Shown here piece after piece: positions 17,585 to 63,166 of a DNA stretch of 64,000 nt. The notes beneath the pieces are model-generated. The model ran no database searches and was not told the DNA's origin. It saw only the letters and a list, made by a program, of their open reading frames with translations. This stretch comes from Escherichia coli (lineage in GTDB: Bacteria > Pseudomonadota > Gammaproteobacteria > Enterobacterales > Enterobacteriaceae): the NCBI RefSeq assembly GCF_048403405.1, contig NZ_CP183129.1; one strand, 5' to 3'. Position numbers and translations under genes: made by a program. Position 1 is the first letter of the stretch; each line of letters opens with the position of its first letter.

Positions 17585-17611
17585 AAAAAATAAGCCCGTG
17601 TAAGGGAGATT
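17585..17611. other. Phage P2 attB core-like sequence (aaaaaataagcccgtgtaagggagatt) at the cyaR 3' end, unoccupied
   Basis: 27-mer read from sequence; matches the P2 attachment core as I recall it; no prophage genes flank it here. Confidence 0.5.
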
Positions 17612-17671
17612 ACACAGGCTAAGGAGGTGGTTCCTGGTACAGCTAGCATTTTATGGGTTATGTTTTTCAGC
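17585..17671 (-). ncRNA. cyaR: CyaR (RyeE) Hfq-dependent sRNA
   Basis: Reverse complement reads GCUGAAAAACAUAACCCAUAAAAUGCUAGCUGUACCAGGAACCACCUCCUUAGCCUGUGUAAUCUCCCUUACACGGGCUUAUUUUUU, matching E. coli CyaR as recalled. Confidence 0.85.
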
Positions 17672-17755
17672 GAAACGGATGATAACCTTAATAAATGCAG
17701 CTGTATGTGATCGGTTTCTAAGAATTTTCCATCCGGGAAAAATAATCGAAATTAA

Positions 17756-30989: not shown

Positions 30990-31128
30990 AACGGGAAAGC
31001 CCCTCCCGAGGAAGGGGCCTTAAATAAGGAAAGGGTCATGATGAAGCTACTCATCATCGTGGTGCTCTTAGTGATTAGCTACCCAGCATACTAAGACTAC
31101 CAGGGCGGGGGAAACCCCGCTCTACCCT
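30990..31128 (-). ncRNA. Sib-family antisense sRNA (type I antitoxin), copy 1; ends approximate
   Basis: Minus-strand promoter-like TTGACA-17-TACTTT near 31135..31165 and hairpin gcccct/aggggc plus U-rich tail near 30995..31018; fully overlaps ibs copy 1. Confidence 0.5.
31038..31094 (+). CDS. Ibs-family type I toxin peptide, copy 1 (MMKLLIIVVLLVISYPAY)
   Basis: 18-codon ORF with SD aaggaaagggtc upstream; Ibs-like hydrophobic peptide. Confidence 0.75.
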   Translation: MMKLLIIVVLLVISYPAY

Positions 31129-31317
31129 CACTCCTGAAAGTATGCCTTCACGATAAGATTGTCAATCTGCAGGCTTTGCAGTCTGCGATCCTGCCAGCAA
31201 ATATTCTTTGCGAGACGTTACGCAATAATCACACTGGAAACTATTTTATCCGCAAGTCAGCGATAGACTGCATACAGGGCGAAAGGAGGTAAGCCGACGA
31301 TTTCAGCGGGACGCTGA

Positions 31318-31456
31318 AACGGGAAAGCCCCTCCCGAGGAAGGGGCCTTAAATAAGGAAAGGGTCATGATGAAGATACTCATCATCGTGGTGCTCTTAGT
31401 GATTAGCTACCCAGCATACTAAGACTACCAGGGCGGGGGAAACCCCGCTCTACCCT
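31318..31456 (-). ncRNA. Sib-family antisense sRNA, copy 2; ends approximate
   Basis: Same elements at equivalent positions in repeat unit 2. Confidence 0.5.
31366..31422 (+). CDS. Ibs-family type I toxin peptide, copy 2 (MMKILIIVVLLVISYPAY)
   Basis: Same position within repeat unit 2. Confidence 0.75.
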   Translation: MMKILIIVVLLVISYPAY

Positions 31457-31646
31457 CACTCCTGAAAGTATGCCTTCACGATAAGATTGTCAATCCGCAG
31501 GCTTTGCAGTCTGCGATCCTGCCAGCAAATATTCTTTGCGAGTCGTTACGCAATAATCACAGAGGAAACTATTTTGGTCACGCGTTAGCGATAGACTGCA
31601 TTCAGGGCGAAAGGAGGTAAGCCGACGATTTCAGCGGGACGCTGAA

Positions 31647-31790
31647 ACGGGAAACCCTCTCCCGGAGAAGAGGGCTTTTAATAAGGAAAGGGTTATGATG
31701 AAGCACGTCATCATACTGGAGATACTCTTAGTGATTAGCTTCCAGGCTTACTAAGAACACCAGGGGGAGGGAGAAACCTCTCCCTAACCC
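31647..31790 (-). ncRNA. Sib-family antisense sRNA, copy 3; ends approximate
   Basis: Equivalent position in unit 3; minus-strand TTGACA-17-TAATTT promoter-like element near 31800..31830. Confidence 0.45.
31695..31754 (+). CDS. Ibs-family type I toxin peptide, copy 3 (MMKHVIILEILLVISFQAY), IbsA-like but with an internal Glu
   Basis: 19-codon ORF in repeat unit 3; GAG codon read directly from sequence. Confidence 0.7.
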   Translation: MMKHVIILEILLVISFQAY

Positions 31791-31974
31791 TCACTCCTGA
31801 AATTATGTCACTCCGCCCTTAGTGTCAATCGACGGCTCTCCGTTCTTGCGAGGCGAATAGCAAAATTTTCTGCGCCGCCGGGCCTAATTCTGAAAGTTTC
31901 TTCGTTTGCTCTTATTTCATTATTGCAATCGGTATGATACCGGGCCTCAATAATTCTCTAAGAAAGGATTTCTT

Positions 31975-45292: not shown

Positions 45293-46876
45293 TCACACTT
45301 CGTACTCCATCTCGCCATCCTTACGTAGCGGAATAATTTGCACCTTCTGCACGCGATGGCTTTCCACCTGCAACGTTTTAAGCAAATAATCCCCCACCTG
45401 AACTTCTTCGCCAGGTTTTGGAATACGCTGCAAATATTCCATCAATAGCCCGGCAATGGTGTGATATTCACGTTTTTCATCCAGCGGCAGCGGCACATAT
45501 TGCACCAGATCTTCCAGCGGCATATGACCATTCGCCGTCCAGGAACCGTCGGCATTCTTCTGAATATCATGGCGGGCGTCGATCTCTTCCACTTCATTCG
45601 GTAAGTTACCGGCAATGGTTTCTGTGACGTCACTTAATGTCACAATCCCTTCCACCGAGCCAAACTCATCCACTACAAAAGCAAAGTGTGTGCGGGCATT
45701 ACGGAACTGCTCCAGGGCAGGTAACAACGGCAAGGTTTCCGGGAACACCAGCGGCTGGCGAATCAACACCCGCAGGTTGAGCGGTTCGCCGCGCAGTGAC
45801 TGTTGTAGCAGGTCGATAACGTGAACAACACCGAGCAAATCTTCCGCGTCATCGCCATCAGTAACCACCAGTCGCGTGTGCTGATTTCGCTCCAGCAACT
45901 GGCGGATCTCGTCTTCCGGCGCGTTGAGATCGATATGCTCAATATCGTGGCGCGACGTCATAATGCTGCTGACGGTACGCTGGTTAAGATTAAGTACCCG
46001 CTCAATCATCCGCCGTTCCTGCGGATTAAAGATTTGCTGGTTACCATGATCCACCAGCATAGACGCGGTTTCGGCGTCCAGTTCCGCATCTTCTTTTTGC
46101 CCGCTAAGCAGGCGCATTACCGCTTCGGTAGTCCGCTGGCGCAGCGTCTGGTTAGCGGAAAGAAAACGTCGCCGGTTAAAGATAGCCAACTGATTGAGCG
46201 CCTCGATCATCACCGAGAAACCAATAGCAGCGTACAGGTAGCCTTTCGGAATGACGAAGCCGAAACCTTCTGCCACCAGGCTAAAGCCAATCATCAACAG
46301 GAAGCTTAAGCAGAGAATAACGATCGTCGGGTGACTGTTAACAAATTGCGTTAACGGCTTGCTGGCCATCAACATCAGGCTGATAGCGATAACGACGGCG
46401 GCCATCATGACCAGTAAATGGTCGACCATCCCGACGGCGGTAATCACCGAGTCGAGTGAGAAGATGGCGTCCAGTACCACAATTTGTGTCACCACCCCCC
46501 AGAACTTCGCACCTTTGCGTTGTGTGGGGTTATTGCTGTCTTTCCCCTCCAGCCGTTCGTTCAGCTCCATCGTGGCTTTGAACAGCAGGAAGAAACCACC
46601 AAACAGCATGATTAAATCGCGGGCGCTAAAGGTAAACGAGCGGAAGCTGAACAGCGGTTGAGTCAGGGTGACCAGCCAGGAGATTGACGCCAGCAGTAAC
46701 AGGCGCATTAACATCGCCAGCAGCAGCCCGGTAACCCGTGCGCGGTCGCGCTGCTTCGGCGGTAGTTTTTCGGCGAGGATGGCAATAAAGACCAGGTTAT
46801 CAATGCCGAGGACCAGTTCGATCACAATCAGCGTGATTAACCCGGCCCAGATAGACGGATCGGCAATCCATTCCAT
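45293..46876 (-). CDS. yegH: TerC-family integral membrane protein with CBS/CorC C-terminal domains, 527 aa
   Basis: ORF 45293..46942; start moved to MEWIADPS; matches YegH as recalled. Confidence 0.8.
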
Positions 46877-47344
46877 AGTAAGTACAAAACCTATTCGTTG
46901 TATGACAAATGTCACAATTCGATCATGGATAAATCGGGGCAAAAATGCAATGTTGCAGCACTATTTATCTCATATTATTTGAGGGTAATAACCTCACATT
47001 ACCCCTGAATTAAAAGTGGTAATAATAAAACATTATTTAAGAAATATCGCATGTGGAGACACTATATTAAATATTGTCAACCTAAAGAAACTCCTAAAAA
47101 CCATATTGAATGACACTTAATATAATTCTTAAAAATAGCCAATTGCCGAATTGTTACCTTGCCTGCTATTCCGTTAGCTGTAACACTTCCTCCTGCATTA
47201 TTGGAGAGCCAATATTCAATTACCATAATGTCACCTTATATTCGGAAGTTAATTTCCGCAATAACCCTTTCTCATCAACGACTGTATGTTGAGAGGGTTT
47301 TAAAAATTAAGCTAAATCAGTGTATTGGTAGCTAAAAAGCCAGG

Positions 47345-47356
47345 GGCGGTAGCGTG
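47345..47356 (+). promoter_or_regulatory. ops element (GGCGGTAGCGTG) within a JUMPStart-like leader upstream of wza
   Basis: Exact ops 12-mer read from sequence about 180 bp upstream of the wza ATG; RfaH-dependent antitermination site in polysaccharide operons. Confidence 0.7.
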
Positions 47357-47534
47357 TCTGGATGCCTGAAAGACCAGTCTGAATTATTCTGTCAATAGCC
47401 TGCGGATGAAATCAATTTTTTTAGGACTGATGCCAGTTAAATTTTTATTCAATTAACTGCAAGGTAAATGTGCATGGCGACATTGCTATTAATAGTGCAC
47501 AGGATAATTACTCTGCCAAAGTGATAAATAAACA

Positions 47535-48674
47535 ATGATGAAATCCAAAATGAAATTGATGCCATTATTGGTGTCAGTAACCTTGATAAGCGGTTGCACA
47601 GTACTTCCGGGCAGCAATATGTCGACGATGGGGAAAGACGTCATCAAACAGCAGGACGCTGATTTCGATCTCGACAAAATGGTGAATGTTTATCCGCTGA
47701 CCCCGCGCCTGATTGATCAATTACGCCCACGCCCCAACGTAGCGCGCCCCAATATGACGCTGGAAAGCGAGATCGCGAATTACCAGTATCGCGTCGGGCC
47801 GGGGGACGTTCTTAATGTCACCGTCTGGGATCACCCGGAACTCACCACGCCAGCCGGTCAGTACCGCAGCTCCAGCGACACCGGCAACTGGGTACAGCCT
47901 GACGGCACCATGTTCTACCCGTATATCGGCAAGGTTCACGTCGTGGGGAAAACGCTCGCTGAAATCCGCAGTGATATTACCGGGCGCTTAGCGACGTACA
48001 TCGCTGACCCGCAGGTGGACGTTAATATCGCCGCCTTCCGCTCGCAAAAAGCCTATATCTCCGGTCAGGTGAATAAATCCGGTCAACAGGCGATTACCAA
48101 CGTGCCACTGACCATTCTCGATGCCATCAACGCCGCAGGTGGCCTGACCGACACCGCTGACTGGCGCAACGTGGTGCTAACACACAATGGTCGTGAAGAG
48201 CGCATTTCTTTGCAGGCGCTGATGCAAAACGGCGACCTCAATCAGAACCGACTGCTTTACCCCGGCGATATTCTTTACGTGCCACGTAATGATGATCTGA
48301 AAGTGTTTGTGATGGGTGAAGTGAAGAAACAGAGCACCCTGAAAATGGACTTTAGCGGTATGACCCTGACTGAAGCCCTGGGTAATGCTGAAGGCATCGA
48401 CATGACCACCTCCAACGCCAGCGGCATCTTTGTCATTCGTCCGCTGAAAGGCGAGGGCGGGCGTAATGGCAAGATTGCCAATATCTACCAGCTGGATATG
48501 TCCGATGCCACGTCGCTGGTGATGGCGACAGAATTCCGCCTGCAACCTTATGACGTGGTGTATGTCACCACCGCCCCGGTTTCCCGCTGGAACCGTCTGA
48601 TCAATCAGTTGCTGCCAACTATTAGCGGTGTCCGTTACATGACGGATACAGCCAGCGACATTCATAACTGGTAA
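47535..48674 (+). CDS. wza: Outer-membrane polysaccharide export lipoprotein Wza, 379 aa
   Basis: ORF track; lipobox LISGC; recognised Wza sequence. Confidence 0.9.
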
Positions 48675-51288: not shown

Positions 51289-51317
51289 CGACGCCTGCAT
51301 TCGCACCGCCCCGTAGG

Positions 51318-51350
51318 CCGGATAAGGCGTTCACGCCGCATCCGGCAAGC
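51318..51350. repeat. REP-like element between wzc and wcaA
   Basis: aggccggataaggcgttcacgccgcatccggca resembles the REP consensus. Confidence 0.5.
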
Positions 51351-61695: not shown

Positions 61696-61795
61696 CCGTT
61701 GAATAATCAACCGGATTAATTCTCCGGTAAATAACGAAAAAACAAAATTGGCCGTTTCGGTCAGGGCCAACTATTGCCTGAAAAAGGGTAACGAC

Positions 61796-63166
61796 ATGAA
61801 AAAATTAACCTGCTTTAAAGCCTATGATATTCGCGGGAAATTAGGCGAAGAACTGAATGAAGATATCGCCTGGCGCATTGGTCGCGCCTATGGCGAATTT
61901 CTCAAACCGAAAACCATTGTGTTAGGCTGTGATGTCCGCCTCACCAGCGAAACCTTAAAACTGGCGCTGGCGAAAGGTTTACAGGATGCGGGCGTCGATG
62001 TGCTGGATATTGGCATGTCCGGCACCGAAGAGATCTATTTCGCCACGTTCCATCTCGGCGTGGATGGTGGCATTGAAGTTACCGCCAGCCATAACCCGAT
62101 GGATTACAACGGCATGAAGCTGGTGCGCGAGGGGGCCCGCCCGATCAGCGGTGATACCGGACTGCGCGATGTCCAGCGTCTGGCAGAAGCCAACGACTTC
62201 CCTCCCGTTGATGAAACCAAACGCGGTCGCTATCAGCAAATCAATCTGCGTGACGCTTACGTTGATCACCTGTTCGGTTATATCAACGTCAAAAACCTCA
62301 CGCCGCTCAAGCTGGTGATCAACTCCGGGAACGGCGCAGCGGGTCCGGTGGTGGACGCCATCGAAGCCCGCTTTAACGCCCTCGGCGCACCTGTGGAATT
62401 GATCAAAGTGCACAACACGCCGGACGGCAATTTCCCCAACGGTATTCCTAACCCGCTGCTGCCAGAATGTCGCGACGACACTCGCAATGCGGTCATTAAA
62501 CACGGCGCGGATATGGGCATTGCCTTTGATGGCGATTTTGACCGCTGTTTCCTGTTTGACGAAAAAGGGCAGTTTATCGAGGGTTACTACATTGTCGGTT
62601 TGCTGGCAGAAGCGTTCCTCGAAAAAAATCCCGGCGCGAAGATCATCCACGATCCGCGTCTCTCCTGGAACACCGTTGATGTGGTGACTGCCGCAGGCGG
62701 TACGCCGGTAATGTCGAAAACCGGACACGCCTTTATTAAAGAACGTATGCGCAAGGAAGACGCCATCTACGGTGGCGAAATGAGCGCCCACCATTACTTC
62801 CGTGATTTCGCTTACTGCGACAGCGGCATGATCCCGTGGCTGCTGGTCGCCGAACTGGTGTGCCTGAAAGGAAAAACGCTGGGCGAACTGGTGCGCGACC
62901 GGATGGCGGCGTTTCCGGCAAGCGGTGAGATCAACAGCAAACTGGCACAACCTGTTGAGGCGATTAACCGCGTGGAACAGCACTTTAGCCGCGAGGCGCT
63001 GGCGGTGGATCGTACCGATGGCATCAGCATGACCTTTGCCGACTGGCGCTTTAATCTGCGCTCCTCCAACACCGAACCGGTGGTGCGGTTGAATGTGGAA
63101 TCACGCGGTGATGTGCCGCTGATGGAAGCGCGAACGCGAACTCTGCTGACGTTGCTGAACGAGTAA
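61796..63166 (+). CDS. cpsG: Phosphomannomutase, 456 aa
   Basis: ORF 61748..63166; start moved to [10 protein letters not shown]; active-site TASHNP. Confidence 0.9.

Follow-up and report, generated by a model that had tools for sequence, protein, structure and literature searches.

The promoter and leader of the colanic-acid (cps, wza-wcaM) operon of Escherichia coli K-12 were reportedly described in 1996, by Stout and by Stevenson and co-workers, and Wehland and Bernhard are said to have demonstrated in 2000 that RcsA with RcsB binds a wza box and that induction is lost when this box is mutated. The activator of cps is RcsB, which binds the RcsAB box with RcsA, and the genes beyond wzc need RfaH. 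The rcsA promoter has two RcsAB boxes approximately 170 bp upstream of its start, in AT-rich, curved DNA that is bound by H-NS. Among RfaH-controlled operons, wza-wcaM is one of eight loci with an ops element in the leader that recruits RfaH, and RfaH ChIP is also positive at the waaQ, wzx, hlyCABD and kps leaders (PMC9765446). The distance from ops to the first gene is 190 nt for wza, 71 nt for wzx and 634 nt for hlyC (PMC9765446). Hustmyer et al. refer to wza as a 'cryptic' RfaH locus; in strain CFT073, H-NS occupies the DNA around the wza promoter, and only the hns stpA double mutant shows a sigma-70 peak and RfaH signal (PMC9765446).

Here, we analysed the region upstream of wza in a 64-kb window of an E. 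coli chromosome ("the window" being the whole stretch of DNA under study). According to the gene annotation, the interval 46877-47534 (658 bp) is exactly the yegH-wza intergenic region, lying between these two genes:

45293-46876, minus strand: yegH, a TerC-family gene divergent from wza (PGAP annotation).
47535-48674, plus strand: wza, with wzb and wzc next (NCBIfam equivalogs, PGAP annotation).

Downstream of wza-wzb-wzc, the open reading frames are all co-directional up to the end of the window, and the colanic-acid (cps/wca) operon begins in this segment. A 1-kb query around the interval is 100% identical to strain O1:H42 CLSC36, and 4818 of 5426 complete E. coli genomes contain this region at a coverage of at least 80%. 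Between K-12 and the window, the alignment of the intergenic region has no gaps and 10 SNPs in 660 bp, none of which falls in the three box-like sites described below (E1, E2 and E3), either promoter hexamer, JUMPstart/ops or the late leader. In this comparison with K-12, which a preliminary description of the sequence had proposed as a check, every element is therefore identical. In K-12 coordinates, E1 corresponds to 2137740-2137727, E2 to 2137695-2137682 and E3 to 2137660-2137647. The K-12 RefSeq record has no regulatory features annotated in the yegH-wza region. PGAP does predict a 'hypothetical protein' on the minus strand (47077-47226), overlying the operator and promoter, but just 2 of the 76 aligned sequences have this ORF intact, and we regard it as spurious.

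The intergenic region has a GC content of 34.7%, and both flanking genes are at 53%. The preliminary description called 47000-47330 (32.3% GC) very AT-rich, which holds for approximately 46950-47150, whereas 47150-47330 is only moderately so. It also treated the full 650 bp as a leader. This DNA does lie upstream of the colanic-acid operon, but judging by the predicted start (see below) only about 341 nt of it would be leader; the 317 bp upstream of this start are the operator and the divergent yegH promoter region.

Taken as a whole, this is a genuine and functional feature that is already familiar, namely the textbook control region combining Rcs and RfaH, and it has been described before (Stout, 1996; Wehland and Bernhard, 2000; Hustmyer, 2022). 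We are confident that the interval is a two-stage regulatory region of the colanic-acid (cps/wca) operon, in which an Rcs-activated promoter is followed by an ops/RfaH leader. What we add is a coordinate map of operator, promoter and leader across approximately 20 genera, with two or three RcsAB-like boxes instead of one.

The RcsAB consensus, as quoted from Wehland and Bernhard (2000), is TaAGaa-tatTCctA, in which the right half belongs to RcsB and faces the promoter, and the pattern for RcsB homodimers is TN(G/A)GAN4TC(T/C)NA. A plain consensus scan with TAAGAATATTCCTA returned three candidates but is uninformative alone, as matches of at least 10/14 are expected 1.5 times per region in shuffled sequence. 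The best match of any box is 10/14, a level expected by chance in such AT-rich DNA. The motif scan suggested in the preliminary description thus supplies candidates but could not have placed the box by itself, which demonstrates that RcsAB boxes in AT-rich DNA cannot be located by consensus alone. A combined scan for the RcsB and RcsAB patterns gave 11 strand-hits, against 3.7 +/- 2.5 in shuffles.

Since consensus matching was not significant by itself, we turned to phylogenetic footprinting. A scan anchored on Wza, with one genome per species, gave 80 loci from approximately 20 enterobacterial genera, including Citrobacter, Salmonella, Enterobacter, Lelliottia, Kosakonia, Phytobacter, Atlantibacter, Trabulsiella, Cedecea, Buttiauxella, Franconibacter and Siccibacter, among others. 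We aligned 76 orthologous upstream regions and measured conservation as the mean majority-base frequency, for which the median over all 14-mers upstream of JUMPstart (0.57) serves as the baseline. The alignment consists of sharp conserved blocks with saturated DNA in between. Up to the predicted start, the features are as follows (box centres are given relative to that start):

46911-46960, minus strand: conserved block beside the yegH start; majority-base frequency 0.70, against about 0.50 in the adjacent DNA.
46950-47150, no strand: the most AT-rich stretch (28.4% GC), spanning the operator.
47038-47051, plus strand: E1, TAAGAAATATCGCA, a distal site resembling an RcsAB or RcsB box, centred at about -149.5; conservation 0.76.
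47075-47099, plus strand: E2 block, comprising an invariant TGTCAA, the RcsAB-like box TAAAGAAACTCCTA (47083-47096) and AAA; conservation 0.89.
47116-47135, plus strand: E3 block, comprising the pseudo-palindrome TAATATAATTCTTA (47118-47131) and then AAAA; conservation 0.92.
47157-47192, plus strand: predicted core sigma-70 promoter; conservation 0.86.
Various positions: spacers between the blocks; conservation 0.47-0.52.

The block beside yegH probably serves that gene as its divergent promoter or 5' UTR, a function we infer, and would lie outside the wza switch. The AT-rich stretch is likely to be the region where H-NS and StpA nucleate and silence the promoter.

Among the hits of the combined pattern scan, those that are conserved are exactly E1, E2, E3 and a single leader site. 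We placed the boxes by their conservation and spacing, and not by consensus score. The E2 box matches TaAGaatatTCctA at 10/14 positions (5/6 of the capitals) and is centred at about -104.5. Its promoter-proximal half-site TCCTA (47092-96) is near-invariant, its left half is one base out of register, and the block as a whole stands out from flanks at 0.47-0.52. E3, which reads TAAGAATTATATTA on the minus strand, matches the consensus at 10/14 on either strand (5/6 capitals), has one mismatch to the RcsB pattern and is centred at about -69.5, with TCTTA (47127-31) as its promoter-proximal half-site. The strong (RcsB) half thus faces the promoter in both boxes, and the two have a promoter-proximal motif in common, AATC(C/T)TAAAA, in the same orientation. 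Their spacing is also conserved: E2 and E3 lie 34-35 nt apart in 71/76 sequences, and 31-32 nt separate E3 and the -35 hexamer in every sequence (76/76).

The most distal site, E1, matches only 9/14 consensus positions but all six capitals, and has one mismatch to TNRGAN4TCYNA. Its majority form in other genera is TAGGAAATATCGCA, and it lies 45 nt from E2 in 52/76 sequences. It is present in Escherichia, Citrobacter, Salmonella, Enterobacter, Lelliottia and Kosakonia, and has been lost in Cedecea, Buttiauxella and Franconibacter. From this sequence evidence, the best candidate for the RcsAB operator is the E2/E3 pair (47083-47131), with E1 as a putative auxiliary site restricted to certain lineages. 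The preliminary description expected an RcsAB box in the AT-rich segment without placing one, and the conserved RcsAB-like boxes at 47083-47096, 47118-47131 and 47038-47051 bear out this expectation. A full-text search of the accessible literature with the three candidate box sequences returned no match; E2 may be the wza RcsAB box of earlier publications.

In the predicted core promoter, the -35 hexamer TTGCCT (47159-47164) is separated by a 17-bp spacer from the extended -10 element TG-t-AACACT (47179-47187), the -10 hexamer being AACAAT in most genera. The conserved block reads CTTGCCTG...TTAGCTG(T/C)AACA(C/A)T. Its hexamers have 7/12 matches, under the 9-of-12 rule of a simple scanner, which did not call them. 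Conservation collapses directly after 47193, and because it stops there we predict a start at approximately 47194-47195 (K-12 position 2137584), from which the leader would be about 341 nt long. For comparison, Hustmyer et al. list the wza start as 'NA' (PMC9765446). We also looked by eye for other promoters. The GATAAT at 47503-08 in the late leader has no partner hexamer at 16-18 bp and its -35 region is not conserved, and the two invariant TGTCAA motifs, which read TTGACA on the minus strand and could belong to antisense promoters, likewise lack a partner hexamer at 16-18 bp. We rejected both.

Two other readings of the DNA upstream of the leader need to be weighed. It is a real possibility, though not the one we favour, that only one of E1, E2 and E3 is an RcsAB box, while the others bind IHF, Fis or another activator, act as an UP element, or shape DNA curvature. 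The literature speaks of one RcsAB box at wza, E2 and E3 have only one good half-site each, and E3 with its A-tract at around -70 could act as a UP-like or bending element. Such a division of labour sits poorly with the motif that E2 and E3 have in common, repeated in the same orientation at a fixed distance, and all three sites are among the few RcsB-pattern hits of the region. Moreover, an operator with two boxes is documented for rcsA. It is far less probable that the functional promoter is instead the scanner's sole hit, TGGAGA-16-CATAAT at 47202-47229, which would start transcription at about 47236 and turn 47157-47192 into an activator site. This is the only site in the region to pass the 9-of-12 rule, and it would put E3 at about -110 and E2 at about -146, within the range known for RcsAB boxes (about -170 at rcsA). 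However, this one hit compares with 3.1 expected by chance, it falls where the region is least conserved (0.48), and its -35 hexamer carries a difference in K-12, at 47206. The hexamers at 47159-47187, on the other hand, keep their 17-bp distance in 76/76 sequences, and conservation ends where their start is expected. We therefore rejected the scanner's hit and retain the 47157-47192 promoter, with the E2/E3 pair as its candidate operator.

Downstream of the predicted start, the leader contains the following features:

47195-47317, plus strand: early leader, variable in sequence and length; conservation 0.48.
47318-47356, plus strand: JUMPstart (Rfam RF01707), a 39-bp match; conservation 0.91.
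47345-47356, plus strand: ops 12-mer GGCGGTAGCGTG, exact, in the same sense as wza and occurring once in the window.
47383-47400, plus strand: late-leader block ATTATTCTGTCAATAGCC, at a fixed 37-39 nt from ops; conservation 0.88.
47419-47445, plus strand: late-leader block containing the RcsB-box-like TAGGACTGATGCCA (47422-47435); conservation 0.89-0.92.
47487-47534, plus strand: wza translation-initiation region (...CAGGATAATTACTCTGCCAAAGTGATAAATAAACA-ATG), at a fixed 35-37 nt from the ATG; conservation 0.93.

The early leader differs between genera to the extent that the distance from promoter to JUMPstart ranges from 118 to 156 nt. JUMPstart itself would begin at +124 relative to the predicted start. 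In a cmscan search it scored 57.3 bits (gathering score 35, E-value 1.5e-11) across model positions 1-38 of 38; all five pairs of the stem in the Rfam model are standard, with none flagged as non-standard, and it is the sole JUMPstart in the 64-kb window. The exact ops 12-mer in a JUMPstart-like context, as reported in the preliminary description, is thus confirmed as a single copy within a full match to the family. The ops core GGCGGTAG (12-mer family GGCGGTAGnnTG) is on the non-template strand, in the sense of the operon. Of the 80 loci, from approximately 20 genera, 76 have an ops element no more than 400 nt ahead of wza, and 188-199 nt separate it from the ATG (mode 190 nt, the distance also found in the window). 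It is exact in 62 of the 76 aligned orthologues, and GGCGGTAG is kept in 75; across these 76 sequences, nearly all variation falls at position 10 (G/A/C), a position known to be degenerate. Between the aligned JUMPstart and box-like sites that are conserved in around 20 genera, neither half of the control region anticipated in the preliminary description is absent from this interval.

We take ops, which would occupy +151 to +162 relative to the predicted start, to be the site where the polymerase pauses and RfaH loads. The RfaH ChIP data to which the preliminary description looked for a check have been published, and are positive at the same ops in CFT073 lacking hns and stpA, with the signal gone in an rfaH deletion (PMC9765446). 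Dataset S2 of Hustmyer et al. gives the CFT073 wza ops as GGCGGTAGCGTG, 190 nt before the first gene, so that it equals the ops of the window in both sequence and distance (PMC9765446).

The leader, too, can be read in other ways. If ops were vestigial or a chance element, it would play no part in colanic-acid expression. Wild-type cells grown in rich medium keep the operon silent and show no RfaH signal there (PMC9765446), one clade has the promoter and wza without JUMPstart, and an IS1 insertion between JUMPstart and wza raised the capsule phenotype and did not abolish it. Against this, an exact ops is expected by chance only 0.008-0.010 times per 64-kb window (a shuffle expectation of 0.22 also includes matches with one mismatch), and it is part of a 39-nt JUMPstart match at 57 bits. 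The pattern of variation among the orthologues, limited to the one position known to be degenerate, and an RfaH ChIP signal that depends on rfaH also speak against it, and for practical purposes we consider this reading already refuted. The clade in question, that of Pseudescherichia vulneris, lacks JUMPstart but retains the promoter and late leader, indicating that ops is not indispensable everywhere. An explanation that we find unlikely, though not to the same degree, is that the late leader (47383-47534) is an RNA thermometer, a riboswitch or a CsrA-binding RNA, and is the main control after initiation in place of ops. It has three blocks at 88-93% conservation and fixed spacing, with two invariant GGA motifs; colanic acid is thermoregulated, and deletion of csrA raises cps mRNAs up to 50-fold. 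However, RNAalifold on the leader from ops to the ATG found 0 compensatory pairs (covariation term -0.29), the leader of the window folds no more stably than its shuffles (z = +0.40), and Rfam has nothing besides JUMPstart in this region of the window at E <= 1. With no covariation, excess stability or Rfam family, we rejected a structured cis-regulatory RNA in the late leader. Binding of CsrA to the GGA motifs is disfavoured by a published EMSA, which was negative with the wza 5' UTR. The ops/RfaH leader hence remains our reading of the control that follows initiation.

This leaves the conservation of the late leader itself, for which no role is described in the literature that could be searched. 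TAGGACTGATGCCA (47422-47435) is a fourth pseudo-palindrome resembling an RcsB box, with one mismatch to TNRGAN4TCYNA and the same TCCTA/TAGGA half-site as in E2, and the 47419-47445 block around it is kept even in the lineage without ops (the Pseudescherichia vulneris clade). We found no recognisable Shine-Dalgarno sequence before the wza ATG. RfaH has been proposed to couple ribosomes to mRNAs that lack a Shine-Dalgarno sequence, and the wza start fits this description. Tentatively, the three blocks (47383-47400, 47419-47445 and 47487-47534) may form an undescribed layer of colanic-acid control, although we consider this rather unlikely. In one version, 47422-47435 could be an intragenic RcsB-type operator that acts on elongating or paused polymerase, or loops to the upstream boxes. 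In another, the conserved sequence before the ATG may be a sequence-specific, RfaH-linked translation-initiation region for a wza gene without a Shine-Dalgarno sequence. Both are leads and not findings. Together with the natural ops-less lineage, the conserved late leader could nevertheless be used to separate the loading of RfaH from the leader sequence in capsule expression.

Combining the elements, conservation and spacing found here with the Rcs dependence, H-NS silencing and RfaH occupancy known from the literature, the region would work in two stages. In the first, H-NS and StpA would silence the AT-rich operator DNA until envelope stress leads phosphorylated RcsB and RcsA to occupy RcsAB boxes that precede a weak sigma-70 promoter. 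For these boxes, the E2/E3 pair is the best candidate, perhaps assisted by E1, and transcription would start near 47194. In the second, at around 150 nt into the 341-nt leader, the polymerase would meet ops within JUMPstart and pause with the non-template strand exposed, allowing RfaH to replace NusG. The RfaH-loaded complex would then resist Rho, H-NS blocks to elongation and a REP hairpin after wzc, such that transcription reaches the end of an operon exceeding 16 kb. A further role of RfaH may be to bring ribosomes to the Shine-Dalgarno-less wza start. The hairpin is the following element:

51317-51347, plus strand: REP-type palindrome GCCGGATAAGGCGTTCACGCCGCATCCGGC in the wzc-wcaA spacer; -30.5 kcal/mol, z = -1.76.

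No canonical intrinsic terminator was found on the plus strand after wzc. The REP palindrome is a plausible candidate for an attenuation point that RfaH-modified polymerase reads through, although we infer this link.

Compared with known systems, the window has its closest counterpart in the K-12 cps (wza-wcaM) promoter and leader, which is the same locus and from which it differs in nothing functional. The leaders of waaQ (rfa), the O-antigen cluster (listed as wzx), hlyCABD and kps resemble the predicted one of wza: each is untranslated, has a member of the GGCGGTAGnnTG family on its non-template strand and precedes a long operon for envelope or secretion functions. Unlike these, initiation at wza is silenced by H-NS and needs activation by Rcs, which makes the loading of RfaH conditional. 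The operator is also reminiscent of rcsA, where multiple RcsAB-type boxes likewise lie at a distance from a weak promoter in AT-rich, H-NS-bound DNA; the putative boxes of wza are at about -150, -105 and -70, although the Salmonella rcsA box (TAAGGTTTATCCGA) is unlike the wza sites. Finally, the group 1 capsule clusters (K30 and Klebsiella cps) also have an RcsAB box and JUMPstart/ops before wza-wzb-wzc, as well as a stem-loop attenuator after wzc. There, however, the RcsAB box (TAAGATTATTCTCA, at galF P1) and JUMPstart are on two promoters, and wzi precedes wza, whereas in the window the RcsAB-like boxes and JUMPstart are both in one 658-bp region directly upstream of wza.

The window holds several annotated or predicted elements, some in the colanic-acid operon and its control region and others elsewhere:

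1318-1414, + strand, TPP riboswitch (Rfam, 71.8 bits)
17588-17673, - strand, CyaR/RyeE sRNA (Rfam, 100.7 bits)
31023-31828, - strand, SIB RNA (RF00113), three tandem copies (141-146 bits)
47077-47226, - strand, 49-aa 'hypothetical protein' WP_162829205.1 (PGAP; called in many E. coli genomes)
47422-47435, fourth RcsB-box-like pseudo-palindrome, TAGGACTGATGCCA
51317-51347, REP-type palindrome, GCCGGATAAGGCGTTCACGCCGCATCCGGC
61742-61791, + strand, algC RNA motif (RF02929; Rfam, 78.2 bits)

The WP_162829205.1 reading frame shares its DNA with the conserved RcsAB-like boxes E2 and E3 and with the core promoter. Since it is intact in only 2/76 aligned orthologous regions, the sequence comparison indicates that this is almost certainly a spurious call rather than a real gene. 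At the yegH end of the intergenic region, shortly before the start of that divergent gene, a conserved block (46911-46960; conservation 0.70) probably represents its promoter or 5' UTR. Although yegH belongs to the TerC family, no riboswitch was called here.

Further elements lie within the operon and elsewhere in the window. The REP-type palindrome lies in the 92-nt wzc-wcaA spacer, where it may act as an attenuator inside the operon. The RF02929 match sits at the start of an ORF late in the operon (61748-63166), probably the phosphomannomutase gene. In type I toxin-antitoxin loci of the Ibs/Sib kind, SIB RNAs serve as the antitoxin.

Within the predicted transcribed leader, 66 nt after ops (the RfaH loading site), the fourth RcsB-box-like site shows 92% conservation across genera. 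The 8-mer TGTCAATA (majority form) recurs at two other places: the 47390 leader block and a position close to the left edge of E2.

A colanic-acid control region that naturally lacks ops occurs in Pseudescherichia vulneris, 'Escherichia sp. ESNIH1' and the MAG UBA7338 (L035, L036 and L039 in the Wza-anchored scan). In the region upstream of wza in these loci (about 300 nt), JUMPstart/ops is absent and the leader is ~75 nt shorter; the conserved late leader is retained, as is the core promoter (CTTGCCTG / GCTGYAACA).

Citrobacter amalonaticus S646 carries an insertion of ~119 bp between ops and wza, placing ops 335 nt upstream of the start of the tblastn match and roughly 308 nt ahead of the wza ATG. 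Its JUMPstart is intact (59.1 bits). In a lab-evolved E. coli, IS1 has been found in the same ops-wza interval, with enhanced capsule phenotypes (PMC8117528 supplement).
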